A DNA stretch of 64,000 bases. Origin: Candidatus Iainarchaeum sp. (GTDB taxonomy: Archaea > Iainarchaeota > Iainarchaeia > Iainarchaeales > DTGL01). The notes beneath the pieces were generated by a model, which ran no database searches, was not told the origin of the DNA, and saw only the letters and a list, made by a program, of their open reading frames with translations. The first letter of the stretch is position 1, and the number at the start of each line of letters is the position of its first letter. The position numbers and the translations under genes are program-made. Location of the stretch: contig JAPLVS010000045.1 in the NCBI GenBank assembly GCA_026396995.1, positions 31,519 through 95,518 on the forward strand. Direction: 5' to 3'. This document shows, in pieces, positions 1,111-62,216 of this stretch.

Positions 1111-1890
1111 GTGTGTTTTTTTATGGGAAAAGTCGGTAAAAAGGCGGGTTTTTCTTTTTTGGTTTTTGCCCTCATTTTGTTGGGCATTGCGGTTTTTGCC
1201 GCCGTCCCCAAGTGTGCTGGGCAAACTGGTTTTGACAAGGATGACTGCATTGAGGCAAATGCCGTGACAGCGCAGGACTGCGCCGAGATTTTTTCAATTA
1301 GCCAGCAGGAAAATTGTATTTTAAGGGTGGCAAAGGAACCCAATGATTGCGAGTTAATTTCGAACGAAACAACCAAATGGCAGTGTGTCAAGGGCCTTTT
1401 TCCGGCTCTTGAATCTCTTGCAGACTGCACTAAGTTGCCCTCAAAGTATTTATCCAAATGTGAGGCGTTCGTAACTTTTCAGAACAATCCTGAGGACATT
1501 TCGGTCTGCTGGAAGTTGAAATATGATTCTCAGGAATACTGCGTTGAAGAATATGTGACGAACAGAAAAATTTCAGACCCGAATTTTTGCCTTGATGTCA
1601 AAGAGGATTTCCAAGCAAGATGTGCTTACCTTGCGACCTTGAACAAGTATGGCTTTGGCGCTGTCTTGGGCGAAACTGAAAAGGGCGCATGCGACACGTA
1701 CACAGGCAAAATCAAGGATGGCTGCGAGCAATATTTTGCTTTCAGCAGCGCTGCAAACGGAGCAATTGGCGGTTTTTTAACGGCAGGATTGATCTTCTTT
1801 GCGGCGATTGTCATTTTCGGGCTGGCGGCAATCGTAATAGTAATCTATGTTCTGACAAGGAAAAAAGGTCAACCTGAAAAGCCAAAATAA
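1111..1890 (+). CDS. Cys-rich repeat surface protein with C-terminal TM anchor (paralogue family with 14306..15202 and 60711..61436)
   Basis: N-terminal hydrophobic signal, repeated D-x3-C-x8-10-C-(Y/I) units (e.g. DPNFCLDVKEDFQARCAYLATL), C-terminal hydrophobic helix GLIFFAAIVIFGLAAIVIVIYVL followed by basic tail. Confidence 0.55.
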   Translation: MCFFMGKVGKKAGFSFLVFALILLGIAVFAAVPKCAGQTGFDKDDCIEANAVTAQDCAEIFSISQQENCILRVAKEPNDCELISNETTKWQCVKGLFPALESLADCTKLPSKYLSKCEAFVTFQNNPEDISVCWKLKYDSQEYCVEEYVTNRKISDPNFCLDVKEDFQARCAYLATLNKYGFGAVLGETEKGACDTYTGKIKDGCEQYFAFSSAANGAIGGFLTAGLIFFAAIVIFGLAAIVIVIYVLTRKKGQPEKPK

Positions 1891-1941
1891 ACCGATTTCG
1901 CTAAAGATTTAAATAAAAAGGCTTTTTGCCTTTCTTTTGGC

Positions 1942-2673
1942 ATGAAAATTGGTCTTTTGGCGCTTTTGCTTTTGCTTTTCCCTTTTTTCGCGGGCGCAGC
2001 ATATTATGCCGACATATCTGTTGATGTGGGTTCGGACGGCATTTCAACCCTTTCCGGCACCACAAACCATCCTGCGCTTGCTGCAGGGCAGAGCAGCGAG
2101 TTCACTTCCAAGGAAGGCAAGTACTGGCTTTTTTCCATTGACTTGAACGAGCAGTTTTCCGATTTTGTTTTTTCTGTGCTTTTGCCTGAGGGTGCATCAA
2201 TAAATTACGCCAAGGGCCCATCTGTCCGCATCGAGACAGAGAACGGCAGGATTGCTGTGAAAGGCGTCGGCAGCAACGGGCCTTTTTCCCTCAAAATACA
2301 GTATTCCCTTGAGGCGGACCAGAAAGAGCCCTTGATTCCATTGTGGGGTTATGTGCTGCTTTTGTTCGCGCTCTTTATTGCGGCAAGCTACCTGATTTTA
2401 AGGTACAAAAAGAAAAATTCTGAACCGATTGAAAAACCAAGGAAGAAAGGCTTGTCCGAAAAGGAAAAGGCTTCGCTCACAGAAAGGCAGCTTGCAATAA
2501 TCGGAATAGTTGAAAAAAACAAGGGCTTTGTTTCCCAGAAAAAAGTGGAAGAAGAATTGGGAATTCCCAAATCCTCGGTTTCAAGGAATGTGGAAGCGCT
2601 CGTGAAAAGAGGCTATTTGAAAAAGGAAGAGAAGGGCATGACCAACATGCTTTTCCTTGTAGAAACCAAGTAG
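1942..2673 (+). CDS. Membrane-spanning transcription regulator: extracytoplasmic domain - TM - C-terminal MarR-like winged HTH
   Basis: Signal/anchor MKIGLLALLLLLFPFFAGA, TM helix LWGYVLLLFALFIAASYLIL, then basic stretch and wHTH TERQLAIIGIVEKNKGFVSQKKVEEELGIPKSSVSRNVEALVKRGYL. Confidence 0.55.
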   Translation: MKIGLLALLLLLFPFFAGAAYYADISVDVGSDGISTLSGTTNHPALAAGQSSEFTSKEGKYWLFSIDLNEQFSDFVFSVLLPEGASINYAKGPSVRIETENGRIAVKGVGSNGPFSLKIQYSLEADQKEPLIPLWGYVLLLFALFIAASYLILRYKKKNSEPIEKPRKKGLSEKEKASLTERQLAIIGIVEKNKGFVSQKKVEEELGIPKSSVSRNVEALVKRGYLKKEEKGMTNMLFLVETK

Positions 2674-2773
2674 TTCTGGCTTGTTCCGCCTTGTTCCGCT
2701 GTTTTCCGCAAAAACCTAATTAAGCGTTCCGCCGCAATACTTCCAACAAACAAAAACCAAAGGAGGGCTGAAA

Positions 2774-3982
2774 ATGAAGAAACAATATTTTGTCCTTCTG
2801 CTTGTGCTGCTGGCGGCATTGATTTTGCCGGCAGTGTTTGCGGAAGACGAAAATGCAACGCCGGCGCCGACAGCAACGCCGGAAATTACGCCGACGCCTG
2901 AGGAAACGCCTGAACCGACCCCTTTCCCGGAAGGGATAGACCCTGAAACAGGCGAGCCTATAATGGACATGGAAACATCACTGGAAATAGAGTCCATGGG
3001 TTCAGGCATTGGGGCGCAGGTAAGGCTGCTTCAGTTGGAGAAATCCATTCTAAAGAGAGTCATTGCCGGCGAGCAAGCAATAGAATGGATAAAAGCAAAT
3101 AGGCCGGCAACCGATGTCAATAACCTTGAAGCTATCCTTGCTGAATTGAAGACTGTGAAGGACGAGGTCAAGGCCGAATATGATTCGGTCAAGGCAAACG
3201 GGGTTGACGGGAATACTGTAAAGGCTTTTGTCGACCTCAAAAATGACGCGAGGAGCCTTGTCAAGCAGTTCAGGGATGCTGGAAAGGACATCGTTGTGGA
3301 GCAAGGCTATAAGGAATTTATGAAAGCCCTGGAGGGGGATGCGGAAGTAGCGGCGCTTACTTCCGAAATCAAGGAAGCCGCACAGGAATTCAACGCCCAA
3401 AGGCTTGAGGAATTCTTTTCGAAACTGGAGGAAAGCCAGGCAGGCCTGATAGCCAAAGTCAGGAGCGGGGAAATCACCCTCAAAGAAGCCAAAGACCAGA
3501 TAAAGGAATTCCTTAAAGGGCTTGACTCCGCCCCGAAAGGAAAGGCATTCCAGTGGCTGAAAGAAGCCGGCGCAAAAAAGCGCGTTTTCGGGCAGGCCAA
3601 GGCACAGGAGGCAAAAAACCAGTTCCTTGAAAGGCGCGTAAACAGGCTCCAGGAAAGGATTGAAGACCTGAACAAAAATCCAAGAGTTGGCGAAGTTGCC
3701 CAAAACATAATGGACCGGGTAAAGGAACGCATTCAGGGCAGGATACATGATATGAACTTAGGTCCTCACGGGCAAAACCAGAGTCCCGGTGATTGGAATG
3801 CAGGCCAGAACGGCGGGCTTTGGGCTGAAGACATGAACCAGCCTGATGACCAGAACTGGCCTGATGGCCAGGGCGGGCAGCCGAACCAGAACGGCGGGCA
3901 TGGGTTGCAGGATAATCACTGGGACCAGAATGAGCCGCCTGACCAGAACAACGGCCACGACGGCGAGCCGGAGGGGTGGTGA
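2774..3982 (+). CDS. Secreted protein with Pro/Thr-rich linker, coiled-coil region and Q/N/G-rich C-terminus
   Basis: Signal peptide MKKQYFVLLLVLLAALILPAVFA; TPAPTATPEITPTPEETPEPTP linker; long helical Lys/Glu-rich core; C-terminal QN-rich low-complexity tail; RBS-like aaaggaggg upstream. Confidence 0.5.
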   Translation: MKKQYFVLLLVLLAALILPAVFAEDENATPAPTATPEITPTPEETPEPTPFPEGIDPETGEPIMDMETSLEIESMGSGIGAQVRLLQLEKSILKRVIAGEQAIEWIKANRPATDVNNLEAILAELKTVKDEVKAEYDSVKANGVDGNTVKAFVDLKNDARSLVKQFRDAGKDIVVEQGYKEFMKALEGDAEVAALTSEIKEAAQEFNAQRLEEFFSKLEESQAGLIAKVRSGEITLKEAKDQIKEFLKGLDSAPKGKAFQWLKEAGAKKRVFGQAKAQEAKNQFLERRVNRLQERIEDLNKNPRVGEVAQNIMDRVKERIQGRIHDMNLGPHGQNQSPGDWNAGQNGGLWAEDMNQPDDQNWPDGQGGQPNQNGGHGLQDNHWDQNEPPDQNNGHDGEPEGW

Positions 3983-13343: not shown

Positions 13344-13416
13344 GCCGGAGTGGCGCAACCGGTAGCGCGGCACACTCGTAATGTGCAGGTTGGGGGTTCG
13401 ATTCCCCCCTTCGGCT
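13344..13416 (+). tRNA. tRNA-Thr (anticodon CGT)
   Basis: GCCGGAG-TG-GCGC-AACCGGTA-GCGC-G-GCACA-CTCGTAA-TGTGC-AGGTT-GGGGG-TTCGATT-CCCCC-CTTCGGC-T cloverleaf, followed by a T-run terminator. Confidence 0.85.
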
Positions 13417-13484
13417 TTTTTTTGTCTTTTTTAGGGGAAAGGAACCCTTCGAGTTCTTTTAAACTCAAAAACCGATATCTTTGT

Positions 13485-14300
13485 ATGGAGAATGCGGAGA
13501 GAATTGAATTTCCAGATGCGGCAACAAGAAACGAGTTTTTCGGCTTGCTGAAAGGCTCTGTAGGGGTTAGAGCTTGGGATGAACTTTACAAGAGATTCAA
13601 TATTGGCCGGAGCCTTTTCCAAGGATATAGATGTGGCCAATTCACCCTGCCAAAAGACAAGTTTCAAACATTTTTGGAATTTTTGCCAAGCCAGGAACGA
13701 GAACGTTTCATTTCGATGATTTCAACTAAGTCGGGGAGTTGGGGAAGAAAACTCGGGGGAATTTCAACCTATTATAAATATCCAGAACTTTTTCAGCAAG
13801 GAAGAGAGAAGGCGTGGCACAGCCTTAATCATTCAGGTGGCGGAAGACGTTACTACGCTTTGAACATTCCATTACGCTCTGATTTGTGCGAGTTTATTGG
13901 TGCATTGATTGGCGATGGGTTCACTAACCAGTATGGCTCTTATTACCAGACCGGCTTCTGTGGCGATAAGAGGTTTGACAAGAATTATTACGATACTTTG
14001 ATTATTCCGATTGCAAGAGATTTGTTCGAAGCAAAGGCCCATTTTCGCTATAAGAATAACGGCATGTGGATTAATTTCGGTTCGGTGTTCATGCACAGAG
14101 TTTTAACCGAAAGATTCGGAATCCCCAAAGGCGTAAAATTCGACAAAGTCTTAATCCCGGAAGAAATCCTTAATTCAAACCAGGAATTCATTGCAGCCAC
14201 ATTGCGCGGAATCTTTGACACAGACGGAAGCATTTATTTCGACAAGCGCAAGATTTACCGGAAACCATACGTGCGAATAGAGCTGAATATGAAGATATAA
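13485..14300 (+). CDS. Free-standing LAGLIDADG-family homing endonuclease-like protein, probably 3'-truncated/degenerate
   Basis: Two LAGLIDADG-type motifs (EFIGALIGDGFT and FIAATLRGIFDTDGSIY); only ~25 aa follow the second motif (normally ~70-90) and the ORF abuts the stop of the opposite-strand gene at 14306; start trimmed to first Met after the tRNA. Confidence 0.65.
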   Translation: MENAERIEFPDAATRNEFFGLLKGSVGVRAWDELYKRFNIGRSLFQGYRCGQFTLPKDKFQTFLEFLPSQERERFISMISTKSGSWGRKLGGISTYYKYPELFQQGREKAWHSLNHSGGGRRYYALNIPLRSDLCEFIGALIGDGFTNQYGSYYQTGFCGDKRFDKNYYDTLIIPIARDLFEAKAHFRYKNNGMWINFGSVFMHRVLTERFGIPKGVKFDKVLIPEEILNSNQEFIAATLRGIFDTDGSIYFDKRKIYRKPYVRIELNMKI

Positions 14301-14305
14301 GGAGA

Positions 14306-15202
14306 TTAACCCGTTCCTGCAAGATAAATGCAGCCCTCTTTTGCCGTTTGGTTTTGGATTTTGTCGCAGATTGTTGGGTCTTGTTTGTCTACAGCAACAT
14401 TATTATAGCAAGAGTCTTTGTTAATTTGTTCCTGGATTTTGTCACAGATTGAAGGATCTTGTTTGGCTGGGGCAATCTCAAAATAACAATGGTCTTTGCC
14501 GACCTGGTCTTGGAGTTGATCACAAATTAGCGGGTCTTGTTTTGCTATTGCAATACGATAATAGCAGCCCTCTTTTGCCGTTTGGTCTTGGATTTTGTCA
14601 CAAATTGAGATATCGTTTTTGTCAGAGGCAATGCGGGTATAGCAACTGCCTTTGGTATCTTGATATTTGATGTAATCGCAGAAAGCTGGGTTTTGTGTGG
14701 CTATGGCTATCTTGGTGTAGTCCTCGTAGGGCGGCTTGCATCCCCAAGAAAAAACAAGGTACAAAACAGCCAAAACACCAACCAAAAAAACAAAAATCCA
14801 CTTGGTCTTCTTGTGGTTCTCTTCAAAAAACCACAAAATGACAAAAATGCCTAAAAAAATAACAGGCGGAGCAAACCCTGACGAGGAATTAAACTTGTCG
14901 CAGGGATTGCGTAGATCCTGCTGGAAAACCATTGGGAGAACAAGCGCTGCAATGAACGCAAGCAGAACAGTCCATAAACAGGCCGCTTTCCAGAGTTTCC
15001 TGTTCGGCTCCTTTTTTTTGACGGAAAAAAAGCAAAGGATCAGGGATAGGAAAGGCACAAAACTAACAGCATAGCCAATTACTGTGTTGCCAAGTGGCAA
15101 AGCAAAAAGCACAGAGAGGAGCAATGCCGGTGGCACCAATAGCCAAACCAAAATAGCCAGGCACCCGAACTTATTCTCTTTGAAAGATTTCAACAAATCC
15201 AT
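14306..15202 (-). CDS. Polytopic membrane protein with C-terminal tandem Cys-rich ~28-aa repeats (paralogue of 1111..1890 and 60711..61436)
   Basis: N-terminal TM helices; five tandem units of ICDKIQ(D/E/N)Q.(A/G)K(E/D).CY..(I/V)A.(A/D)KQDP.; repeat visible at DNA level 14310..14700. Confidence 0.55.
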   Translation of the reverse strand: MDLLKSFKENKFGCLAILVWLLVPPALLLSVLFALPLGNTVIGYAVSFVPFLSLILCFFSVKKKEPNRKLWKAACLWTVLLAFIAALVLPMVFQQDLRNPCDKFNSSSGFAPPVIFLGIFVILWFFEENHKKTKWIFVFLVGVLAVLYLVFSWGCKPPYEDYTKIAIATQNPAFCDYIKYQDTKGSCYTRIASDKNDISICDKIQDQTAKEGCYYRIAIAKQDPLICDQLQDQVGKDHCYFEIAPAKQDPSICDKIQEQINKDSCYNNVAVDKQDPTICDKIQNQTAKEGCIYLAGTG

Positions 15203-15249
15203 GCCAATAATAGGCGCCCGAAATATTTATTCCTTTCCTTTGATGCGGC

Positions 15250-16226
15250 GGTGTAGAAATCCTATTGGGGTACGAGGGTTAGCGTGATTTTGATTGTTCG
15301 CCCGATGTGTTCGATGTTGTAGGCTATTGCTTTGATGGTTGCTTGTTTTTGTTGGTTTGCAGCGTTTTTTGCTCTAACAAACCCTCCAAGGGTTTGTTTG
15401 ATTGCAGAATTCACTGATTCAGCTATTGCCCTTTTTTGATAAGTTTTCAGGTTAAATTTTTGCAGTGCTCTCCTGCGTTTAGCGCAATAATGTTGTTGGC
15501 CGTACTTGTCTTTTTGTGATGCGTGCTTTCTGAACGGAATATGCACGTTCAATCCATGCAACCAACAAAACTCCCTGTTCTCTAGAGAATCATAGCCTTT
15601 GTCAGCCAACACAGTCCGCAACACACTTAATAGTTCTTGCACCATAGGCCGAAACGTTGTAATCTCGTTCGAGTGGTCAGAAAAAGTTCGAACATTGAGC
15701 ACAAGTTTTGTGCTAATATCACTGATAAACACGGTTTTAGTATAGTTTGAATGGGTTACGCCGTCAACACGTTTTTCATAATAATGTGAAGGATTCGTGT
15801 TAGAAAAACCTGTTCCGTCAATCGCTGCAACACTATTCCTCACATTCAACAGTTTTGAACATGCTCGAACCATCAACTCAAACAATAGTTTTGGAGTGCG
15901 CTGCACAAACTTTTGCAGCGTACTAAAATGAGGGATGCGTTTCAAACCCAACATGTGCGCTATCTGGTTTTCTTCACAGATTTCAACAAAACGCCTATAC
16001 GAAACATTGAGTTTCTCTCTATAGACTGCGAGAAACGAGAGTTTGATGTTGCCATACATTTTTTTAGAAAACAAAGAGTTCCGGCAAGGCACTCCAGCCA
16101 ACCAACACAATCGCTCAACCAAACCATAAAAGTTATTAACCCGAACAGGATACAATCGCATTAGAGTCACCGATAAATAGGAGTGCAAACTCCTATTTAT
16201 CACTATTTAAAAAGGATTTCTACAGA
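15250..16226. mobile_element. Insertion sequence (~0.98 kb) with single DDE transposase gene and ~12-13-bp terminal inverted repeats
   Basis: tgtagaaatcct at ~15252..15263 and its reverse complement aggatttctaca at ~16213..16225 bracket the transposase ORF; internal perfect palindrome gataaataggagtgcaaactcctatttatc at ~16172..16201. Confidence 0.7.
15262..16203 (-). CDS. DDE transposase (IS4/IS5-superfamily-like)
   Basis: DGTGFS...DKGYDS...AIAESVNSAIKQTLGG motif blocks typical of PF01609-type transposases. Confidence 0.75.
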   Translation of the reverse strand: MINRSLHSYLSVTLMRLYPVRVNNFYGLVERLCWLAGVPCRNSLFSKKMYGNIKLSFLAVYREKLNVSYRRFVEICEENQIAHMLGLKRIPHFSTLQKFVQRTPKLLFELMVRACSKLLNVRNSVAAIDGTGFSNTNPSHYYEKRVDGVTHSNYTKTVFISDISTKLVLNVRTFSDHSNEITTFRPMVQELLSVLRTVLADKGYDSLENREFCWLHGLNVHIPFRKHASQKDKYGQQHYCAKRRRALQKFNLKTYQKRAIAESVNSAIKQTLGGFVRAKNAANQQKQATIKAIAYNIEHIGRTIKITLTLVPQ

Positions 16227-16273
16227 GCCGTTGGCGAAAGCACTACTTGAACAATTGCCTGTTCTGGACGTGC

Positions 16274-16762
16274 TTATTCAGGTCCAGTGTTTCCAATCGC
16301 CTTTGCCAGCCTCTTGGCGATTTCGCCTGCTTCTTTTGCGCCATTGCCCTGCGGCGGCTGTATTCCTATAAGCACCACCTTGCACCCAATGCTTTTTTCC
16401 ACGTAATCCATGAGGAATGAGGCCGAAATGCTGTGCGTTGAAAAATTGCAGCCTCTGATTTTGCCCTTGTCGATTATTTTGATTGAGCCGGGTTTTTCCG
16501 CAATTTCAGCGGCATCAACTATGATCAGGTGGGAGGGGTTCAATTTTCTGATTTTGCCTGTGAAATTTTCAGGCGCTGTCCCTGCGAGAAGGGTTTCGAT
16601 TTTCGGCAATTTCATTTTTCCAATGTTTTTCACTGCTTCGATGCCGATGCTGTCCGCGGGATTGGATTCGTCGCCTATTCCAAGCAAAAGAATCAGGCTG
16701 GAATCTTTACGCATTGCAGGCAGTTGTTCTTCCAGGGAAGGCATTTTTTTACCTTTATTCAA
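16274..16762 (-). CDS. hycI: [NiFe] hydrogenase maturation endopeptidase (HycI-like)
   Basis: [18 protein letters not shown]-terminal signature, ~160 aa, last gene of hydrogenase operon, overlaps upstream gene by 8 nt. Confidence 0.65.
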
Positions 16763-45088: not shown

Positions 45089-48000
45089 TTGGGTGATTCT
45101 ATGAAAAAAACGCTTTCGTTACTGGTATTTTTGGCAATAATTTTGGTTCCCGCAACCGCAGCTGCAATGATGCAGACTGGAACGGCTGCAGCCGTACCTG
45201 TTGCAAACACAGGCGTGCAGGCCGAGGAAGGGAAAGGCGGAGTGGCCCCTGACTATTACAACCGCTATTTTTACATCAGCATAAGCGACAAGTTCATGCT
45301 CGGCGACAAGGTCGAAGCGCAGTTGTGCGGTTCAGGCCTTGCGACAGTTGAACTCTACAGGTTCGAGGACTTTTCAGCAATCTTCGACAGGTACAATTAC
45401 GGCATGAATGACACAAGCGATTTCATGAAAGGCGAAAAGCCCTTCAAAACCCTCACTGTACAGCTTGGAAACGGCCAGGACTGCCAGAAAGCGGATTTGC
45501 AGATAGAACAGGCAGGATTGTATTTCATAAAAGGCTATTCAACCGAATCGGACCAAAAGCCCACAGCGTTTTTTTCAGTCGAAGAAATCGCCTTCATGGC
45601 AAAAGAATCACCTGAAAAAATAGTATTCTATGCGGTTGATATCAAGACAGGAAAGCCGATTTCAGGCGCGGAAATAAAACTGCTCCAGCAGAAAACACCC
45701 ACGACACCGGAACAAAAGCCGGAAGCAACAGAAACAAGCCTTGGCTTCACCAATGATTTGGGATTATTCGAATGGCAGCAGGAAAAGCCTGCTTCAACAG
45801 ATTATTACCAGAGGCTCTTCATTGCAAAAAAAGACAATTCTTTCGCATATGTGCAAAGCTATTATTATGGCGGGGAAAGCGCCGAAAGGAAACAGGTTTA
45901 CCTTTTCACTGACCGCCCTATTTACAGGCCGAACCAGGAAGTGCACTTCAAGGGCATAGTCTGGGAAACAAGCACAGGCAAAAATGCCGCAGTTGCAAGC
46001 AAAACGCTTTCGGTTACGATAAGGGATTCGAAATGGAACGAGGTATTCAAGTCAGATTTTACAACCAATGAATTCGGCTCATTCGAAGGCTCTTTCAATC
46101 TCGCGGACGAGCCGCCTCTCGGGCAGTATTATATTGACGCAGCAATAAGCAAACCAGGGGAAGCCGAAGCCGGCTATTATTCAACCTCGGCTTCTTTCCA
46201 GGTGCAGGAATACCTGAAGCCTGAATTTGAAGTGACAGTGAACCCTTCCAAGGATGTTTTCATAGGCGGGGAAAAGGCGCGCGTCGAGATAAAGGCGGAA
46301 TACTTGTTCAAGGCGCCTGTGCAGGATGCGAAAGTGATGTACAGGGTTTATTCCTCATACTACCAGAGCCCGTGCTACGGCTACTGGAAATGCGTTTACT
46401 ACGACGAAGTGGCGGTTTCGCCTTACTCTTCTTACAGGTCTTACCCGTATTATGGCGGGCAAGAGCTTGTGACCGAAGGGGAAACAACCACTGACAGCGA
46501 GGGCAAGGCATTCCTAGAATTCGACACGAATGCAGACAGGGAAAAGCGCTACCAGATTGAAGCGACTGTTGTTGATGAAAGCAACCGCGAAGTGAAAGGC
46601 ACAGGCCAAATCACTGTTGCACCAGCAATGTTCAGGCTCACTGTAATGCCTGACAAGTGGTGGTACGCTGAAAACGAGGAGGTTGTGCTGAAAATCACAG
46701 CCGCAGACTTCGAGGGCGCAGCAGCGGAAACAAGCGCAACAGTGAAGGTTTTCTCGCTTAACTGGAACAGCACTTCAAGCGATTACGAACACACCCTGGT
46801 GAAAGAGGAAACAGCAAGCACAAGCGAAGGGAAAGCCGAAATAAGGCTCTCGCTCCCAACCGGAAATTATGCGGTGGAAGCATCAGCGCAGGATTCGAAA
46901 GGAAACACCGTGAAAGCCGAGAATTCATTCAGCGTCAGCTCTTATGAAAGCGAAAGCAAGGTGAAAGAAATAGAGGCAGCGCTTGACCGCGATTTCTATC
47001 TCCCAGGCGAACAGGCTGTGCTCACAATAACAATGCCTGAACCAGGATTCTACGCATTGATTTCGGTGGAAGGCAGGGGCATGTACCAGTACGAGGCGGT
47101 GTATTCTGCAGAAAACAGGCTTTCATACATCATTCCGGTTTCCACAGACTATGAGCCTAACGCCTTTGTTTCTGTGACAGGCGTGCAGGGCGGAAAGGTC
47201 TTCAACAAACAGCTTTCATTGAACGTGCCGCCGAAGGAAAAGAAAATAGATTTGAGCATCGAAACAGACGCGGAATATTACAGGCCAGGCGACAAGGCGC
47301 ACTATATAGTCAAAGCAACATCCGACGGCCAGCCTGTGGAAGCGGAATTCGCAGTAATGCTCGTTGATGAGGCAATCTACCAGCTCGCACAGGACAACAA
47401 GGAAGATATCTTCAAATTCTTCTTTGCGCCGGAATACAACAGAGTGAATACCCAGTGGAGCATAGGCGGGTATTATGGAGGCTATTACGGCATTAATGAA
47501 ATGGCTAAGGGCGGCGGAGGGGCCGTGCCAATGGCCACACCGACAACCCAAGCTGACAACGCAGCAAGGGACGGCGGAACAGCGTATGCCGCCGCAGAAA
47601 TAAGAAAGACCTTTTCTGACACGGCATTCTGGAAGGCATTCCTGAAAACGGATTCCACGGGAACTGCGGAATTCGATGTGGATTTGCCTGACAACCTCAC
47701 AACCTGGCGCGCTACAGTGATTGCGAATTCCGAAACAAAGGCAGGCGCACAGGAAGGCAAAATTGCAGTGACAAAAGATTTGCTTGCAAGGCTTATCCTT
47801 CCAAGGTTTGCTGTGAAAGGCGACGAATTTACTGTCACTGCAATCGTGCACAACAGTTTGCCTGAAATGAAAAACGTCCTGGTGAAAATCGAATCTGACA
47901 ACCTTGAATTCCCGGACGGGAACACAATAGAAATTACTGTTGCAAGCGGGAAAAGCGAAAAAGCTGAATTCAAGGCAATAGCGAAAAAATGCTGCTCTGC

Positions 48001-50989
48001 AACAATAAAACTGGAAGCGCTGACAGATGTCGAATCTGACGCGCTCGAAATAATAATGCCGGTATTCCCCTGGGGCATAAAGGAATTCGAGACGGTTTCA
48101 GGGGAAATAAGCGGTGCAACAAAAGAAATAACGATAGAGATTCCTGAGGAAACAGACAGGGAAGCCGACAAGCTGATAATAAAATTGAGCCCTACACTCG
48201 CGGCATCTGTTGTCGATTCATTGGATTACCTTACAGGCTACCCTTACGGCTGCGTCGAACAGACAATGTCAAAGTTTTTGCCTGACGTAGTTGTTTCGGA
48301 AACATTGGGCGAATTGAACCTTGACAACGAAAAAATTTCAAAGGATTTGCCTGACATGGTCGACAAGGGGCTGCAAAGGCTTTATTCTTTCCAGCACGCG
48401 GACGGCGGCTGGGGCTGGTGGGAAAACGATGAATCACAGCCTTTCATGACCGCTTACGCGATGTACGGCCTCACGCTGGCAAAAAAAGCAGGATTTAACG
48501 TAGAGGAAAGCGTGATTGAAAAAGGCCTCCAGGCAATGAGGGACAAATTCCATTCGGCAGGCACAAAAGGCTATGCCGACGAATACGATTCGCAGGCAGA
48601 AAAAGACTTGGAAGTGCAGGCATTCATGTCCTATGTGCTTTACCTCAACGGCGACAGCAAATTCGTGGGAGAGATTGAGGGCAAGGCAGGCGAAATGAGC
48701 GATTACGGCCTTGCGCTTCTCGCGCTCCAGGCAGAATCGAAAGAAGAGGCGCAGCCTTTCCTTGACTCGCTCGGCAAGAATGCAGCCTGCGACGCAACAT
48801 TCTGCTCCTGGCAGGGCAAAAGCTGGAGGCACTATTGGAGCGAAAGGGACATGGAGTCAACAGCGATGGTGCTGAAGGCGTTCGTGAAATGGCAGCCTGA
48901 AAGCGAACAGGCAAGGAAGGCAGTCGCATGGCTCATGAGCCAAAAGCAGTACAACCACTGGAATTCAACGCAGGACACTGCGACCGCAATAATGGCAATA
49001 ACAGATTACCTGAAATATTCAGGGGAATTGGACCCTGACTTCACAGCCAAAGTATACATAAACAACGAACTCAAAAAGGAATTCTCTGTCACAAAAGAAA
49101 ACCTGATGAGCACAGACGGAGACCTGACAATAGAGGTTCCGGAAAAGCAGAGCAACATCAGGATTGAAATGACAGGAAAAGGAAAGCTCTATTATTCGAT
49201 AACAAAAGAATACTTCGCGAAACAGGAAAAAATCGAAGCGAAAAGCAACGGCATCAAAATCACAAGGGAAGTGAAAAATGCCCTTGACATAGGCGAAGAG
49301 GCAACAGTGAAACTGACAATAGATGCGGACAAGGAATACGACTATGTCATTGTGGAGGACTTCCTGCCTGCCGGCGTTTCAATCGTTGATACCTGGCAGC
49401 GCAACACCTACGGGCACTATTACTGGGACTGGATGCCGTACTGGTATTCGAGGCTTGAAGCGCGCGACGAAAAGGCAGTGTTTTTCTTCGACAGCCTGCA
49501 GCAAGGCAAAACCGAACTCGAATACACGATAAGGGGCGAGGTTTCAGGCGCATTCAGGCACCTGCCTGCGCAGGCCTATTCCATGTACAATCCTGAAATC
49601 AACGGCCATTCTGAAGGAGGCAATTTCACTGTCACAACAGAAAAATCTTTCTCGCTGCCGAAACTCGAAGTGCACGACGACTACATATGGATTTACCCGA
49701 GACCGATTCCGATGGGTGCTGAAGTCAAGGCAACAGTCCTTGATGCTTCAGGCAAAGCCGTTGCATCGGCTTCAGGCCAGGCAAGCGAAGGAAAAATAGC
49801 GATTCCTTTGTCCGCAGGCCTCGCAAACGGAACCTATTCTGTCAGCGTTTCAACAGGGAGCGGAACTGCCACAAAGGACTTCCAGGTCGGCACTGTGGAA
49901 ATAAAGAAAGCAGAGCTTGCCTCGGCAACCTACACAAACGATCTCCTGGAAAGGACTGCACAGTCAGCATTCTCAAATCCCGCACAGGCAATGTGCACCT
50001 CGACAGGCGGCTCATGGAACGGCCGGTGCTCGTGCCCTTCAGGCTCGTACTGGCTTTTCGGCATAGGATGCCTTGCAAAAGGCGCCGGCATCGGGGGAAC
50101 GGCAGTTGAAAGCCTTTACCTTATTGCCTGCGCATTCCTATACTCCTTGCAGCCGATTTTCATCAAGGCGGCGCTCCCTTTTCTGACCCAATTCCAGATG
50201 TACGCTTTCCGCTGCGTTGGAACCCTGTTTGTGTTCCTTCCGCTCGCATTCCATTACAGGGAAAAGGTGCGCTCCGAGCTCAGGCAGTGGAAAAAATTCA
50301 TTGTTCCAGTAATAACAATCACCGGGGCAATGATGCTGTTTGTGGCAGGGATTTATCTTGCGGAAAACGCGACAGTCATGGCCCTGATAGCAAAATCCAA
50401 CCTTGTGTTCACGGCAATCCTGACAGTAATATTCTTTGCAGAGGAAAGGAGGGTGCTTTCCTCCAAAAGATTCATTGCCGGCGTCCTTTTGGCTTCAATC
50501 GGGGTAATCGGGGTCATCACGGCAGGGAAAGACTTGCCGCTCACATTCGGGATTGGCGCAATACTCATCCTGGTATCGCAGGTCTTCTGGAGCGCTTACT
50601 CGGTTTCACTGAAAGGATTGATAAAAAACAACAGCAGGCTTGAGGCATTGTGCGTGATTGTGCCGATGGCATTCCTTGTATCCGTGCCGTTTGCAGGCTA
50701 TGAAATCGCTGCCACAAACCCGCAAATAAACCCAATCTTTCTCCTGATACCGGTTGCAGCAGGAATGGCGCTCGGCCTTGCAAATATCTTTGAATTCAAG
50801 TCAATAGAAACCAAGGGCCTGATGATAACATACGCTTTCACGCTTATCAACCCGCTCCTCACAGGCTTAATCGCCTTCTTCATATTTCAGGAAACAATAT
50901 CAATCGCGCAGGCGGCCTTTGCTGCAGTCCTGATTGCAGGCGCACTGCTGATACTTAAATGCGAATGCATCGAAACCGAGGGCGACTGA
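45089..50989 (+). CDS. Alpha-2-macroglobulin-family thioester-containing protein fused to C-terminal EamA/DMT-type 10-TM transporter-like domain (1966 aa)
   Basis: Signal peptide MKKTLSLLVFLAIILVPATAAA; thioester motif LTGYPYGCVEQTMSKFLPD at nt ~48251..48262, followed by the W-rich block HADGGWGWWEND; beta-rich N-terminal 1000 aa consistent with MG domains; residues ~1680..1966 form ~10 TM helices in two EamA-like halves. Confidence 0.8.
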   Translation: MGDSMKKTLSLLVFLAIILVPATAAAMMQTGTAAAVPVANTGVQAEEGKGGVAPDYYNRYFYISISDKFMLGDKVEAQLCGSGLATVELYRFEDFSAIFDRYNYGMNDTSDFMKGEKPFKTLTVQLGNGQDCQKADLQIEQAGLYFIKGYSTESDQKPTAFFSVEEIAFMAKESPEKIVFYAVDIKTGKPISGAEIKLLQQKTPTTPEQKPEATETSLGFTNDLGLFEWQQEKPASTDYYQRLFIAKKDNSFAYVQSYYYGGESAERKQVYLFTDRPIYRPNQEVHFKGIVWETSTGKNAAVASKTLSVTIRDSKWNEVFKSDFTTNEFGSFEGSFNLADEPPLGQYYIDAAISKPGEAEAGYYSTSASFQVQEYLKPEFEVTVNPSKDVFIGGEKARVEIKAEYLFKAPVQDAKVMYRVYSSYYQSPCYGYWKCVYYDEVAVSPYSSYRSYPYYGGQELVTEGETTTDSEGKAFLEFDTNADREKRYQIEATVVDESNREVKGTGQITVAPAMFRLTVMPDKWWYAENEEVVLKITAADFEGAAAETSATVKVFSLNWNSTSSDYEHTLVKEETASTSEGKAEIRLSLPTGNYAVEASAQDSKGNTVKAENSFSVSSYESESKVKEIEAALDRDFYLPGEQAVLTITMPEPGFYALISVEGRGMYQYEAVYSAENRLSYIIPVSTDYEPNAFVSVTGVQGGKVFNKQLSLNVPPKEKKIDLSIETDAEYYRPGDKAHYIVKATSDGQPVEAEFAVMLVDEAIYQLAQDNKEDIFKFFFAPEYNRVNTQWSIGGYYGGYYGINEMAKGGGGAVPMATPTTQADNAARDGGTAYAAAEIRKTFSDTAFWKAFLKTDSTGTAEFDVDLPDNLTTWRATVIANSETKAGAQEGKIAVTKDLLARLILPRFAVKGDEFTVTAIVHNSLPEMKNVLVKIESDNLEFPDGNTIEITVASGKSEKAEFKAIAKKCCSATIKLEALTDVESDALEIIMPVFPWGIKEFETVSGEISGATKEITIEIPEETDREADKLIIKLSPTLAASVVDSLDYLTGYPYGCVEQTMSKFLPDVVVSETLGELNLDNEKISKDLPDMVDKGLQRLYSFQHADGGWGWWENDESQPFMTAYAMYGLTLAKKAGFNVEESVIEKGLQAMRDKFHSAGTKGYADEYDSQAEKDLEVQAFMSYVLYLNGDSKFVGEIEGKAGEMSDYGLALLALQAESKEEAQPFLDSLGKNAACDATFCSWQGKSWRHYWSERDMESTAMVLKAFVKWQPESEQARKAVAWLMSQKQYNHWNSTQDTATAIMAITDYLKYSGELDPDFTAKVYINNELKKEFSVTKENLMSTDGDLTIEVPEKQSNIRIEMTGKGKLYYSITKEYFAKQEKIEAKSNGIKITREVKNALDIGEEATVKLTIDADKEYDYVIVEDFLPAGVSIVDTWQRNTYGHYYWDWMPYWYSRLEARDEKAVFFFDSLQQGKTELEYTIRGEVSGAFRHLPAQAYSMYNPEINGHSEGGNFTVTTEKSFSLPKLEVHDDYIWIYPRPIPMGAEVKATVLDASGKAVASASGQASEGKIAIPLSAGLANGTYSVSVSTGSGTATKDFQVGTVEIKKAELASATYTNDLLERTAQSAFSNPAQAMCTSTGGSWNGRCSCPSGSYWLFGIGCLAKGAGIGGTAVESLYLIACAFLYSLQPIFIKAALPFLTQFQMYAFRCVGTLFVFLPLAFHYREKVRSELRQWKKFIVPVITITGAMMLFVAGIYLAENATVMALIAKSNLVFTAILTVIFFAEERRVLSSKRFIAGVLLASIGVIGVITAGKDLPLTFGIGAILILVSQVFWSAYSVSLKGLIKNNSRLEALCVIVPMAFLVSVPFAGYEIAATNPQINPIFLLIPVAAGMALGLANIFEFKSIETKGLMITYAFTLINPLLTGLIAFFIFQETISIAQAAFAAVLIAGALLILKCECIETEGD

Positions 50990-56690: not shown

Positions 56691-58025
56691 ATGCATAAAA
56701 AACTCCTGGCTGCAGCGCTGCTGTTGCTGTCCTTTTCCTGCGCTTTCGGTTGCACAAGCATCGGGCTGCACCCTAACCTGACAGAAAAAGACGGCAAGAT
56801 TTTCGGCTCGGTGCTTGTAGAGTGCGACTGGAACGCCCTTGCAGGGGTAAAGGTGGCGGTCACAGTGCCCAGCGGCGAAACCCAAACTCTTGTCACCTCT
56901 GAAACAGGCGACATTTACATTGAGGGAGGCGAAAAGGGCGCATACTTTTTCTCAGTGGAAGTTGCAGAAGGGAACAGCAACGAGGCAAAGGTCGTGCTCC
57001 GCGGGAAAGCCGGAATCACTGTCATCAGGGACGAAAACACTTATTTTGTCTGCGGCGAAGCGAACCAGGTTGAAATAATCGACAACGGAACGCTCTACAT
57101 TGTGCCGGCCAAAGGGGGCTGCGGAACCTACACAACCAAAAGCGATTCGTTTACAGTGCGCGCAGGCGGAACAGAAAAAAAGGCAGGAAAAATGCTGTTC
57201 ATCGAGGCTCCTGCCGAGGCAATTGCAGGAACCCAGTTTACAGTGAGGGTGCTTGACAACTCGAGGCCTGTTGCAGGCGCAACAGCAAAAATCCTGGAAA
57301 CCGAAAAAACAACAGATGCCTTGGGCTTGGCTGTTTTTTCTGTTGAAAAAGCCGGCAGCTTCGAAATCAGCGCAGAACTCGGAGGCATGGCTGCTGAAAA
57401 GAAAACAATAACAGTTCTCGAAAAAAAGAAAGAATTCGATGTGTCGTTCCCGGAAGAGGTTTTCCCTGGGGAAGTTTTCATTGTGAATGTTTCATGTGCT
57501 GGAGAGCCGGTGCAGGGCGCTGTTGTGGAATTCAGGAAGCAGTCAAAGCCAACCAACAGTGAAGGGGATGCTTTCTTTTCGGCTCAGGCAAAAGGAGCTT
57601 TTGAGGTTTTCGTGCAAAAGGAAAACTTTGAGCAGTTCAGTTCAACAGTCGAATGTGTTGCGCTTGAACAACCGGCGCTTGAACTCATGTTCCCATCTGA
57701 AATAACCGAAGGCGATGCATTGGAAGCGCTTGTGCTGTCAGGCGGGGAGCCGGTAGAGGGCGCAAAAGTGTCTTTCAACGGCCTGGAAAAAGAAACAGAC
57801 AGTTCAGGAAAAGCCGTCTTCATTGCACCGCAGGCAGGCAGCTACAATGTGGTTGCGCAAAAGGAAGGGTTTGCCTCTGGTGAAAAAACAGCCAGTGTGA
57901 ACAAGCCGGCTTCAGAGCCGCTGACCAATGAAGCGATACTGTTCCTTTCACTGCTTGTCTTTGTGTTTTTCATCTGCCTTGGCGGGGCAATACATTTTTT
58001 CAGGAAATGGAGGAGTTTAAGGTGA
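56691..58025 (+). CDS. Surface lipoprotein-like protein with Ig-like/carboxypeptidase-regulatory-like repeats and C-terminal TM anchor
   Basis: Signal with lipobox-like SFSCAFGC; repeated beta-rich ~80-aa units; C-terminal hydrophobic helix + RKWRSLR. Confidence 0.5.
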   Translation: MHKKLLAAALLLLSFSCAFGCTSIGLHPNLTEKDGKIFGSVLVECDWNALAGVKVAVTVPSGETQTLVTSETGDIYIEGGEKGAYFFSVEVAEGNSNEAKVVLRGKAGITVIRDENTYFVCGEANQVEIIDNGTLYIVPAKGGCGTYTTKSDSFTVRAGGTEKKAGKMLFIEAPAEAIAGTQFTVRVLDNSRPVAGATAKILETEKTTDALGLAVFSVEKAGSFEISAELGGMAAEKKTITVLEKKKEFDVSFPEEVFPGEVFIVNVSCAGEPVQGAVVEFRKQSKPTNSEGDAFFSAQAKGAFEVFVQKENFEQFSSTVECVALEQPALELMFPSEITEGDALEALVLSGGEPVEGAKVSFNGLEKETDSSGKAVFIAPQAGSYNVVAQKEGFASGEKTASVNKPASEPLTNEAILFLSLLVFVFFICLGGAIHFFRKWRSLR

Positions 58026-60085
58026 AAAAGAAAGCGCTGGCACTGGCATTTTTCCTGCTCCTTGCAGGCAGCATTGTTTGGGCTGCGGAAAAAGATGTCA
58101 TACTCCAGATAAACGGCGAGGATGCGGACATAGACGCGAACGCAGTCGAGGTGATTGGGCCAGGCGAATTCCATCTCACAGGCATGGTTAAAAACAACCT
58201 CCTGGCAGAGGACACCCATAAGAACCTGGATTTGGTTTTCATTCTCGACGCAAGCGGCAGCATGCAGGGCGAAATCGACGCTGTGAGGGACTCAATCAAT
58301 GAAATAATCGCTTACGTGAACACGGAATGCCCGGGATGCATGAGGGTCAGCATTTACGTGTTCGAAGCCATCCCGGCAAGTACTGGAGGCGGAGGAACGC
58401 CGCCGCCATGCCACGGGAAAGCCTGCCTGGAACCCAGTTCACCGGAAACAGAAAACACAGAAACCGCTTATTTCGGCTGTTTTTCCAAGAAAGGCTATTG
58501 TGCCGGCGACAATGACAAGGGCCTAATCCCCTTCACCACAAACGCCGACACATTAAAAGAATGCCTTGCCTTGGTTGTGGCAAACGGCTCTGTGGAGCCA
58601 TGGGCAAGGCTCACCTACGAAATACTCAACGACAACAGCTTCGGCTGGAGAAGTGACGCAGTAAAAGCCATGGTTGTGATTACAGATGAGCCGGCAGACC
58701 CATGCAGCTCATGTGATAAAGCCAGCTGCCACAGCCATTACTGCTCCCAGGCGGCAAACACGCTTCTAAGCAAGGACGCCTATTTTTTCGGGATTTACGG
58801 CATATACGGTGGCGCCCCAGGAGTCGACTTGGACATGCAGAAAATCCTTGATGCAGGCGTCAAGGGTGACATGTATTCTTATGACAACACCAGCGAAATA
58901 AAGGAAAAAATCCTGCAGGCAATAGGGACGATTATCGGAAGCGACGACTTTGTGGTGACAAAGGAGCTTGGCCCTGACTGGGAAAGCAACATTGGCGCGA
59001 CCGGCTTTTCAGTGCCGCAGGTCGTAAGGCGCGACCCGAACTGGAGGGAATTCCAGATAGACCTGAAAACCCCGGACACATACGACCAGGATTTCGCCAT
59101 GTTCGAGTACAAGATTGCGATGGTCGACGACCCTTCAAAGTACGATGTCGCCTGGCTGAAAGTGATAATGGGGGAGAACAAGCTGCCGACAGTTTCGCTT
59201 TCACACGAACCTGAAGAGCCGTTGCCGGGGGAAGAAGTTGTTTTCACTGCAGACGCCTTGGATGAGGACGGGACGATTGTGGCATACAGGTGGAATTTCG
59301 GCGACGGTGAAACAAAGGAATGCGCTGACTGCGCCGTCGTTTCCCACACTTATGCCGCAAAGGGCGAATACCTTGTTTCGGTCGAAGTCGAGGACGACCG
59401 CGGCGGAAAAGCAGCTGCTACTGAAAACCTGAAAATAAAGAACAGGCCGCCTAACAAGCCTGTAGTGACAATAAGTCCCACAAGCGGCTTTGCCCCGCTT
59501 GAAACAACAATGAACGCAACCGCCACAGACCCCGACAATGACCCAATCGTGCAATGGCAATGGGATTATGACGATTACACCCCGATGGACACATGCGACT
59601 GCAGTTCAAGAAACCATACTTATACAAGCGACGGAAGTTTCAGCGCAATGGCGAGGGCGTCCGACGGCGAAGACTGGTCTGAATGGAGCGACCCGATTGT
59701 GACAGTTTCAATCAAGAATGTGCTGACAGCTTTCAGGGTGCAGGACACGAATGTCGGGAAGAAGACATTAATGCTTGTTTCATGCACTGACCAAACTCTG
59801 ACCGCTCTTGTGGAAATAATGGACTCCGAGGGCACGCTTTTGAAAACCGTAGAGCGCGAATGCAACGGGCTTTGGTCCGAACCGGATTATGTTTTTGGCG
59901 AAAGCGGGATTTACATGGCAAGGGCTTCCATTAAGGGCAAACAATGCTCGAACTGCCCTAAAACAATATACTTCCGCGCAATCGCGCCCTTCCCTGAAAT
60001 TAAAACGCCTGATGCAAGCCCGCTCTCGGCAGCCGCAGTTCTTGCAGCAGTGCTTATCCTGACAGGAAGGAAAAAGAAAAAATAA
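58007..60085 (+). CDS. Surface protein with vWA (MIDAS) domain, PKD domains and C-terminal TM anchor
   Basis: Signal peptide; LDLVFILDASGSMQGEIDAV MIDAS; PKD-like WNFGDGE...HTY; C-terminal PLSAAAVLAAVLILTGRKKKK. Confidence 0.7.
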   Translation: MEEFKVKKKALALAFFLLLAGSIVWAAEKDVILQINGEDADIDANAVEVIGPGEFHLTGMVKNNLLAEDTHKNLDLVFILDASGSMQGEIDAVRDSINEIIAYVNTECPGCMRVSIYVFEAIPASTGGGGTPPPCHGKACLEPSSPETENTETAYFGCFSKKGYCAGDNDKGLIPFTTNADTLKECLALVVANGSVEPWARLTYEILNDNSFGWRSDAVKAMVVITDEPADPCSSCDKASCHSHYCSQAANTLLSKDAYFFGIYGIYGGAPGVDLDMQKILDAGVKGDMYSYDNTSEIKEKILQAIGTIIGSDDFVVTKELGPDWESNIGATGFSVPQVVRRDPNWREFQIDLKTPDTYDQDFAMFEYKIAMVDDPSKYDVAWLKVIMGENKLPTVSLSHEPEEPLPGEEVVFTADALDEDGTIVAYRWNFGDGETKECADCAVVSHTYAAKGEYLVSVEVEDDRGGKAAATENLKIKNRPPNKPVVTISPTSGFAPLETTMNATATDPDNDPIVQWQWDYDDYTPMDTCDCSSRNHTYTSDGSFSAMARASDGEDWSEWSDPIVTVSIKNVLTAFRVQDTNVGKKTLMLVSCTDQTLTALVEIMDSEGTLLKTVERECNGLWSEPDYVFGESGIYMARASIKGKQCSNCPKTIYFRAIAPFPEIKTPDASPLSAAAVLAAVLILTGRKKKK

Positions 60086-60087
60086 GG

Positions 60088-60657
60088 CTATTTTTTTGGG
60101 AAAGCCAAAAACTCCTTTTTAGCCTTCAAAAAAAGCTTCGTCCCTGTTTCTGTCTTTAATTCCCTTTCTGTTTTCCTGAAAAAATCGCCCATGTCCGCAT
60201 TCACGCGGCCTTTTTTCTGGTAGTATAAGACCTGCAGGCACATTTCAACCATGTCCAAATCCTTCACAAAAACAGATTCCTTCGAACGCTGTTCAAGGAA
60301 TTCCAATGCAAGCGAATCAAGCACTTTCCTTTTCCCCACAGGCGCAAATTTAGAAAATTCTCTTATCGCTTTTTCCTCGGCTTTTTTCTTTTCGGCATTC
60401 GTCATTTCCTGCTCGTGCTCGAATTCGCGCGAGCAGATGTCGCCGCAGACAGTTTCGTGCAAATCGTGGGCGAGAGCAAGGCGGACGCATTTCAATTCGT
60501 CAAGGCCCTCTTCTTTTGCATAAAGGCTGCAGAGCAGTGCAAGGACAAAAGAATGGTCGGCAACGCTCTCCGGCTTTTTCACTTTCCTCACAAGCCAGCC
60601 TGTGCGCTCGATGTCTTTCAGTTCGAGCGCCTTGAGGGCGAATTCAATAAAAGCCAT
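60088..60657 (-). CDS. HD-domain phosphohydrolase
   Basis: H...HD...H...D metal ligands (VADHSF, LAHDLHE, D near C-terminus). Confidence 0.75.
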   Translation of the reverse strand: MAFIEFALKALELKDIERTGWLVRKVKKPESVADHSFVLALLCSLYAKEEGLDELKCVRLALAHDLHETVCGDICSREFEHEQEMTNAEKKKAEEKAIREFSKFAPVGKRKVLDSLALEFLEQRSKESVFVKDLDMVEMCLQVLYYQKKGRVNADMGDFFRKTERELKTETGTKLFLKAKKEFLAFPKK

Positions 60658-61748: not shown

Positions 61749-62216
61749 TTAATCCGAAGCCGGCTTTAGGCTTTTTGGAAGGCGCTTTGATTGCCAGTCT
61801 TGCCATCTTTGCCTCAGGTTTTTTGGAAGGTGCCGTGTCTGCCAATCAAGTTCCCTGGCGATTTCAGCCTCGGCATCGGCAGAATCGGCGGCAATTTTGA
61901 GTGCATAATAGGCAGCGCCGAAGGCGTGCTGGGGAACATGCGCAGTTGCCACTGCCTGGCCTGCTGCACGCGCGGCAAAACAGGCCGCGTTATTTTCTTT
62001 CGCTTCGCGGGCTGCAGCGTGGGCTGCGAGCGAAGCCTTGCGTATATCGGCCATCTTAAACACGCCAGTGCTGGCCCAGGCCCGGCATGCCTCTATGGCT
62101 TTTCTGGGTCGGTCGTCCATGGAGGATGCCTTTTCAAAAAATGGAAGCACCCGTTCGGCGCAGTCCGCGGCCCAGATTGCAAGCAGTCTCTGGTCCTGTT
62201 TGCTGTATTTCTCCAT
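61749..62216 (-). CDS. Ala/Trp-rich helical hypothetical protein, compositionally atypical
   Basis: ORF with markedly higher GC and Ala content than neighbours. Confidence 0.4.
   Translation of the reverse strand: MEKYSKQDQRLLAIWAADCAERVLPFFEKASSMDDRPRKAIEACRAWASTGVFKMADIRKASLAAHAAAREAKENNAACFAARAAGQAVATAHVPQHAFGAAYYALKIAADSADAEAEIARELDWQTRHLPKNLRQRWQDWQSKRLPKSLKPASD

Follow-up and report, generated by a model that had tools for sequence, protein, structure and literature searches.

Three genes spread over a 64,000-nucleotide stretch of DNA from the archaeon Candidatus Iainarchaeum sp. (contig JAPLVS010000045.1, positions 31,519 to 95,518; hereafter the window) raise the question of whether they encode members of one family of surface proteins and, if so, what the cysteine-rich repeat that they carry might be. 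These genes, here called A (1111..1890, forward strand), B (14306..15202, reverse strand) and C (60711..61436, reverse strand), were described in an initial annotation as paralogues built from tandem repeats of about 28 residues, which were thought to match no named domain and perhaps to form a lineage-specific, disulfide-stabilised surface structure. It now seems moderately probable that B, C and probably A display an uncharacterised disulfide-stapled helical repeat at the outer side of the cytoplasmic membrane, where it would serve as a binding scaffold.

A 26-residue repeat with two cysteines per unit

The repeat is at its most regular in gene B, which encodes a 298-residue protein (100% identical to a database protein in a word-indexed search) with five N-terminal transmembrane (TM) helices and a C-terminal repeat array. 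Cysteine spacing, Tandem Repeats Finder (TRF), a hidden Markov model (HMM) of the unit and AlphaFold2 (AF2) together delimit five tandem 26-residue units (14309..14692, reverse strand), located at 14615-14692, 14537-14614, 14459-14536, 14381-14458 and 14309-14380. In that order, the units covering residues 171-298 read NPAFCDYIKYQDTKGSCYTRIASDKN, DISICDKIQDQTAKEGCYYRIAIAKQ, DPLICDQLQDQVGKDHCYFEIAPAKQ, DPSICDKIQEQINKDSCYNNVAVDKQ and DPTICDKIQNQTAKEGCIYLAGTG, with the consensus D-P-x-I-C-D-K-I-Q-x-Q-x-x-K-[DE]-x-C-Y-x-x-[IV]-A-x-x-K-Q. The gaps between cysteines alternate strictly between 12 and 14 residues, so that the period is 26 residues rather than the roughly 28 first proposed. The description of these five units as nearly identical at the DNA level was likewise overstated: pairwise identities are 29-62% for protein and 51-74% for DNA, and TRF detected only 1.8 copies of a 78-nucleotide period (75% match, at 14355-14498).

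The same unit recurs in a large family beyond the window. The word-indexed search with B returned 33 homologues, all of them annotated as 'hypothetical', with Altiarchaeales, Parcubacteria and Nealsonbacteria as the named sources. A HMMER scan of 1.84 billion cluster representatives (50% identity), queried with a 16-sequence, four-unit profile (alignment A1), gave 10,106 matches at E<=1e-3, 4,600 at E<=1e-10 and 844 at E<=1e-30. Among 178 family members the median number of units is 10 and the maximum 30, and the repeats cover a median of 72% of the protein. The family consensus, D-x-S-I-C-D-K-I-x-D-Q-x-x-K-D-x-C-Y-x-x-V-A-x-x-K-x, is again 26 residues long and follows the rhythm C-x11-C-x13-C. 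Two cysteines per unit had been noted from the start, and both proved invariant, being retained in all 1,188 fully aligned units (of 1,268 detected by the HMM). The unit logo also shows conservation of lysine or arginine at position 14 and of aspartate at position 15, with variability at positions 12, 13, 16, 19, 20, 23 and 24.

Modelling of B units 1-4 with AF2, run with alignment A1, predicted a regular alternation of short and long helices with a mean predicted local distance difference test score (pLDDT) of 96.4 and a predicted template modelling score of 0.84. In each unit a short helix at positions 2-7, which carries Cys5, is followed by a loop of 3-5 residues and a 15-residue helix at positions 11-25, which carries Cys17. 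The helical hairpins that had been guessed at are thus predicted at a pLDDT of 96.4. The logo fits this model, with D, N or S at positions 1 and 10 as helix N-caps and I4, I8, Y18, V21 and A22 in the core; the variable positions 12, 13, 16, 19, 20, 23 and 24 are presumably exposed in such a structure. A Foldseek search of the PDB gave no significant match (best E 0.43), and its weak neighbours, at template modelling (TM) scores of 0.45-0.55, were generic TPR, PPR, HEAT and designed repeats, including the PPR domain of PRORP1, the TPR of LGN and the HEAT repeats of VPS35. Against BFVD, too, only non-significant matches to generic solenoids were obtained. The predicted fold class is that of a generic alpha-solenoid, with a unit that is unusually short and asymmetric.

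The family appears to be confined to bacteria of the Candidate Phyla Radiation (CPR) and DPANN archaea, and so to reach across the bacterial/archaeal divide. A scan for related loci in one genome per GTDB species, seeded with the array of B as a single protein, found 26 loci, of which 24 had an informative label; all 24 were CPR/Patescibacteria or DPANN/uncultured archaea (Lipton-, Parcu-, Pacei-, Nealson- and Saccharibacteria; Altiarchaeales, Aenigmatarchaeota and Woesearchaeota). The other two came from an unclassified 'bacterium' and from a metagenome-assembled genome (MAG) labelled Mollicutes (locus L007). The two-gene repeat locus of this 'Mollicutes bacterium' MAG (JAAYPA010000072) and its neighbours match the Paceibacterota contig JAQVJR010000001 (locus L006). 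As the two repeat proteins of L007 score essentially like those of L006 (L007_1161_2324 and L006_3449_4612 both have E=5.5e-42, 132.4 bits and 8 domains), the Mollicutes label is probably misassigned, and L007 probably represents a CPR contig that was binned or labelled wrongly. Tandem paralogues were present in five of the 26 loci, and no relatives were found among IMG/VR viral contigs. The supposed lineage specificity does not hold for a repeat found in 10,106 cluster representatives (E<=1e-3), many CPR bacterial phyla and several DPANN phyla.

That the repeat is not a named domain, as first suspected, was borne out. Searched with A, B and C, Pfam-A (2025), NCBIfam (2026) and PHROGs yielded no match to the repeat, and in 155 other family members (145 at E<=1e-3 and 10 at E<=0.01) no Pfam match fell on the repeat either. 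The repeat profile had no match among PDB sequences even at E<=10, and a literature search found no description of a 26-residue Cys-pair repeat. The repeat is best classified as a sequence family that is new and uncurated, and within the alpha-solenoid class as a variant with a new geometry.

The closest precedent for a disulfide-stapled extracytoplasmic scaffold is provided by the Hcp proteins of Helicobacter, which are secreted, disulfide-stabilised alpha/alpha solenoids of the Sel1-like type (PMC3851747). Like the Sel1-like repeats (SLR, PF08238) of Hcp (HcpB/HcpC) and COA7, the present repeats are predicted to form secreted or extracytoplasmic alpha/alpha hairpins with superhelical stacking, they occur in multi-paralogue families of host-associated microbes, and each has a regularly spaced Cys pair, which in Hcp forms a solenoid-stabilising disulfide (PMC3851747) and putatively does so here. 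The units differ in size and symmetry, with 26 residues divided between a short helix of 4-6 residues and one of 15 in the present repeat, as opposed to the 36-44 residues and two comparable helices of SLR. The cysteine arrangement differs as well, with 12/14 spacing in the present repeat and, in Hcp, a closely spaced pair flanking a short inter-repeat loop. A, B and C had no match to Sel1 (PF08238) at E<=10, nor did the 145 (E<=1e-3) and 10 (E<=0.01) other members, and no Hcp chain was among the top 50 Foldseek matches. TPR, PPR, HEAT and designed helical repeats share the stacked helix-turn-helix units; unlike the present family, TPR, PPR and HEAT repeats are 34-47 residues long, cytoplasmic and Cys-free, with no sequence or profile similarity to it (Foldseek E>=0.43). 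For the TPR clan in particular there was no Pfam match in A, B, C or the 155 members, and Foldseek matches to TPR proteins had E>1 and TM scores <=0.5. The PBS-lyase HEAT-like repeat (PF03130), at about 27 residues, comes nearest in its short helical-hairpin period (approximately 26-27 residues), yet it is cytoplasmic, without conserved cysteines, and found no match in A, B or C at E<=10. In short, the repeat would function much as a disulfide-stapled SLR does, but profile match and repeat length set it apart from both the Sel1 and TPR families.

Genes A, B and C and the location of their arrays

Gene C encodes a predicted lipoprotein of 241 residues from the ATG at 61436; a longer open reading frame (ORF) starting at the TTG at 61571 is possible, though unlikely. 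From sequence reading, its signal peptide (61380..61436, reverse strand) ends in the lipobox LLLGC, and the N-terminal segment MNKSWLALSLGFVILLLGC agrees with the prokaryotic lipoprotein signature [LVI][ASTVI][GAS]C, with LLGC at residues 16-19. Cysteine spacing, BLASTP and the unit HMM revealed a degenerate cap unit and, after it, five units of B type, each of 24-26 residues (60735..61196, reverse strand), giving an array of 5-6 units with a Cys spacing of 10-15/14, of which three are strong and three weak by the unit HMM. The mature N-terminus of C also carries the 16-residue unit QYVCxDGxTVxDKALC in two copies (61320-61367 and 61251-61298, within 61251..61367, reverse strand), a duplication already seen in the initial annotation. 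This is a separate small two-Cys mini-module, which was absent from the 178 repeat-family proteins and from the rest of the window and had no Pfam match.

B and C are clearly homologous in sequence (BLASTP E = 2e-18), and both carry units of the family consensus; to the consensus first proposed for all three genes, A conforms only loosely. The unit HMM was built from 1,053 canonical units of the 178 family proteins, including the units of B and excluding those of C and A, and was run on all 899 six-frame ORFs of the window, so that only the scores of C and A are independent of the training set. It gave E-values of 1e-38 for B, 9e-19 for C and 2.6e-4 for A. As the next best ORF reached only 1.7, there are exactly three candidates in the window, A being a weak one. 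Other 'Cys-rich' ORFs of the window, considered as further paralogues, proved to be wrong-frame artefacts.

Gene A is a 259-residue ORF for a type-I-like membrane protein with 14 cysteines in its ectodomain, and is identical to the NCBI entry 'hypothetical protein NT067_03585 [Candidatus Diapherotrites archaeon]', in which translation begins at the ATG at 1123 and yields 255 residues. Sequence reading places a signal-like hydrophobic segment, MGKVGKKAGFSFLVFALILLGIAVFAAVPKCAGQ, at its N-terminus (1123..1224, forward strand) and a C-terminal TM helix, modelled as helical by AF2, before the basic tail TRKKGQPEKPK (1765..1854, forward strand). Between them lie seven Cys-pair units of the form C-x10/11-C with variable linkers (1201..1743, forward strand), identified from cysteine spacing, AF2 and the unit HMM; the spacing within pairs is 11-12 and there are 11-23 residues between pairs. 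In one million random placements of 14 cysteines in A, none reached even six alternate gaps of 11-12, compared with the seven observed; an explanation by chance or low complexity was rejected on this permutation test and on the E-values. The AF2 model of A has an overall pLDDT of 59.5, with residues 31-121 moderate (pLDDT 74-89) and the remainder poor. It predicts alternating long and short helices with one Cys per helix in the first four units (1201..1488, forward strand), and within residues 31-121 the C5-type cysteines fall in short helices and the C17-type cysteines in long ones, the same alternation as in B.

The initial claim of three paralogous genes therefore stands in part: all three ORFs are present and B and C are homologous, while A is, from its sequence, a remote or degenerate relative at best. 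B and C can be regarded as certain carriers of the repeat, with A probably carrying it in degenerate form.

The anchors that had been read from the three sequences (a C-terminal TM helix in A, N-terminal TM helices in B and a lipobox in C) are indeed visible in them, and by predicted topology they place the arrays outside the cytoplasm, on membrane-anchored proteins, as the proposal of a surface repeat implied. The anchor of B is polytopic, with about five TM helices (14744..15163, reverse strand). By the positive-inside rule its positively charged loops KKKEPNRK and HKKTK are cytoplasmic, giving an N-in/C-out orientation with the array outside the cell. This anchor region is not conserved among other family members, and weak matches of B to Wzy_C and TctB, which were below the cut-off and fell in the same TM region, were rejected. 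In the family at large, a single hydrophobic segment, in most cases at the N-terminus, is seen in 138 of the 178 proteins, and the arrays reach the C-terminal end, leaving a median of 8-9 residues beyond the last unit; in other members the array is combined with a signal peptide or with an unrelated polytopic anchor. The attachment of the array to such varied anchors and signal peptides, as in the window proteins themselves, suggests a mobile extracytoplasmic module. Pfam domains co-occur sporadically among the 155 members (TSP3_bac, Lcl_C, SdrD_B, PG_binding_1, Fib_succ_major and N-terminal zinc ribbons), and the first five of these are of extracellular or adhesin types.

Cysteine pairing, proposed role and rival explanations

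Several features of the arrays bear on how the cysteines may pair. The first cysteine of the array is C5 in 160 of the 178 proteins and the last is C17 in 168; the segment from C5 to C17 tolerates insertions of 9-27 residues and the gap from C17 to the next C5 is fixed at 14; and in A the conserved spacing is the one between C5 and C17. Taken together with the invariance of the cysteines, these features lead us to infer one intra-unit Cys5-Cys17 disulfide per hairpin. Each unit would then consist of a short helix bearing Cys5, a variable loop and a long helix bearing Cys17, with N-caps at positions 1 and 10 and a core built from Ile4, Ile8, Tyr18, Val21 and Ala22. Units would stack into a rod-like alpha-solenoid, and the single staple in each hairpin would stabilise this thin, core-poor structure outside the cell. 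The variable positions, which on this reading include 9 and 11 as well as 12, 13, 16, 19, 20, 23 and 24, would lie on the surface and offer a modular binding scaffold for cell-surface contacts, with the host cell, the cell's own envelope and partner proteins as candidate partners in these ultra-small episymbiotic CPR bacteria and DPANN archaea. The variable surface, the tandem amplification of genes, the adhesin-type fusions and the restriction to episymbionts point to a role in binding or adhesion, comparable to that of Sel1, TPR, LRR and ankyrin effectors, and by this analogy such a role is proposed with moderate confidence.

A number of points weigh against the reading of the arrays as disulfide-stapled binding scaffolds. 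The Cys5-Cys17 pairing rests on array-end statistics and insertion-tolerant sites, no clear Trx, VKOR or other thiol oxidoreductase gene was found in the window, and CPR and DPANN organisms are mostly anaerobes. No neighbouring gene family occurs in more than two of the 26 loci, so that no partner or pathway is indicated, and family members are known only as 'hypothetical' in every source. The taxonomic range was drawn from a pattern-seeded scan, which is biased to consensus-like copies. Lastly, the membership of A is weak by BLASTP (E = 2e-4 and 5e-4) and by hhalign comparison of its three-sequence family with the repeat profile (probability 13.6%, E 0.002), and its AF2 model is moderate only for residues 31-121.

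Gene A is accordingly where an alternative has the most weight, namely that it stands outside the B/C family as a separate Cys-rich helical ectodomain with only the C-x11-C habit in common, leaving two paralogues in the window rather than three. An HMM made from the units of B and C alone did not detect A (E 3.8), and alongside the low hhalign probability, database searches, including a profile search with the A alignment, yielded only two close orthologues (60-65% identity) and no sequence bridging to the family. The linkers between its Cys pairs vary from 11 to 23 residues and do not keep the fixed 14-residue gap of the family, and the C-terminal half of its AF2 model is unreliable. On the other side, the 1,053-unit HMM places A third among the 899 ORFs, four orders of magnitude above noise, its cysteines are in register with C5 and C17 in both the BLASTP and hhalign alignments, and the predicted placement of its C5-type and C17-type cysteines in short and long helices is that of B. 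An independent origin of A is a serious contender, although we consider it less probable than distant kinship. A second alternative would make the paired cysteines metal ligands (for Zn, Fe, Cu or other thiophilic metals, bound between neighbouring helices) or parts of an extracellular thiol buffer or electron relay, instead of structural disulfides. The absolute invariance of the cysteines would suit such a function, as would conserved aspartates at positions 1, 6, 10 and 15 that could serve as extra ligands, and the window has no detected oxidoreductase in organisms whose largely anaerobic life makes extracellular disulfides less favoured. However, two cysteines 12 residues apart on two packed helices correspond to no known metal-site signature, there is no conserved histidine, in the AF2 model the D, N or S residues of positions 1 and 10 coincide exactly with helix N-caps, and odd unit numbers, such as the five of B, give no complete four-Cys site. 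Disulfide machinery is moreover encoded in CPR bacteria, which widely possess an MdbA-like thiol-disulfide oxidoreductase, often adjoining VKOR (bioRxiv 10.1101/335083). A metal-binding or redox function is thus improbable, more so than any other alternative discussed here.

Only slightly less improbable is a third possibility, that the array acts mainly as an envelope anchor in the manner of the C-terminal cell-wall-binding repeats of Gram-positive surface proteins, tethering variable N-terminal passengers non-covalently to the wall or S-layer. The C-terminal position of the array would be expected of an anchor (20 or fewer residues follow it in 121 of 178 proteins), more than 120 non-repeat residues precede it in 56 of 178, and passenger domains such as Lcl_C, TSP3_bac and PG_binding_1 occasionally occur. 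Yet the repeats make up a median of 72% of the protein, many members consist of nothing more than a signal peptide and repeats, lipid or TM anchors are present in the window proteins anyway, and a common wall ligand is unlikely for a family found both in peptidoglycan-bearing CPR bacteria and in peptidoglycan-free DPANN archaea. A stapled binding scaffold remains the preferred reading of the arrays. A bolder form of it can be put forward only tentatively: the repeat might represent an undescribed class of extracellular alpha-solenoid (26 residues, one staple per hairpin), spread probably by inter-domain transfer specifically among CPR and DPANN episymbionts, as a rapidly diversifying, tandemly amplified module for host attachment or surface recognition, the counterpart of LRR, ankyrin and Sel1 effectors in other symbionts.

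Neighbouring genes and meaning for episymbiont surfaces

The surroundings of the three genes differ. Downstream of A by 51 nucleotides lies a membrane-tethered winged-helix regulator (1942..2673, forward strand), in which a signal/ectodomain is linked by a TM helix to a cytoplasmic MarR_2/DUF7343 helix-turn-helix domain (E 1e-9), and the third gene (2774..3982, forward strand) encodes a secreted Pro/Thr-rich coiled protein. This gene order is repeated in metagenome contig L027 (933..1676, 1781..2707), where the regulator is 83% identical to that of the window and the A orthologue and third gene only 60%, which suggests that evolution is slower in the regulator than in the two surface proteins. 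The set may be an operon coupling a surface protein to a transmembrane transcription factor.

An insertion sequence (IS) element (15246..16230) lies 44 nucleotides upstream of the B start codon in the same orientation as B; its imperfect 21-nucleotide inverted repeats (15246-15266 and 16210-16230) flank a DDE_Tnp_1 transposase (15262..16203, E 6e-19), and the native promoter of B may have been displaced or replaced by it. Beyond the element, a HycI-type hydrogenase maturation protease (16274..16762, reverse strand, E 4e-15) implies a [NiFe] hydrogenase for this Diapherotrites genome. On the other side, a 316-residue ORF without a Pfam match (13350..14300, forward strand) abuts the stop codon of B. 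As its 5' end is overlapped by a tRNA-Thr(CGT) gene (13344..13416, forward strand), its true start is probably further downstream (MENAERIEF...); its C-terminal half we take, as an impression, to resemble an endonuclease of the LAGLIDADG type.

Gene C is neighboured by genes for a 692-residue Cys-rich surface protein with a vWA-like domain, two PKD domains and a C-terminal TM anchor (58007..60085, forward strand), an HD_3 phosphohydrolase (60088..60657, reverse strand) and an Imm5-like putative immunity protein (61749..62216, reverse strand, E 3e-40). The presence of this last protein in a DPANN archaeon is surprising, and it may point to a setting of polymorphic toxins or immunity. Elsewhere in the window, an ORF of about 1,966 residues with 18 cysteines (45089..50986, forward strand) is possibly a giant surface protein of a kind typical for DPANN and CPR genomes.

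A large share of microbial diversity consists of CPR bacteria and DPANN archaea, which live attached to other cells, and to our knowledge the molecules with which they build their surfaces and attach are almost all annotated as 'hypothetical'. Against this background stands a repeat family that comprises over 10,000 sequence clusters and lacks a Pfam, NCBIfam or PDB counterpart, with a very confident predicted fold and a seeming restriction to these two groups. Defining the repeat would annotate thousands of dark-matter proteins as extracytoplasmic solenoids, would offer a compact disulfide-stapled scaffold for protein design, and would supply candidates for the study of episymbiont-host contact and of gene sharing between CPR bacteria and DPANN archaea. 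The family is a large and, by its models, confidently foldable piece of dark matter relevant to episymbiont surface biology, familiar in its structural class and with a role that is predicted.

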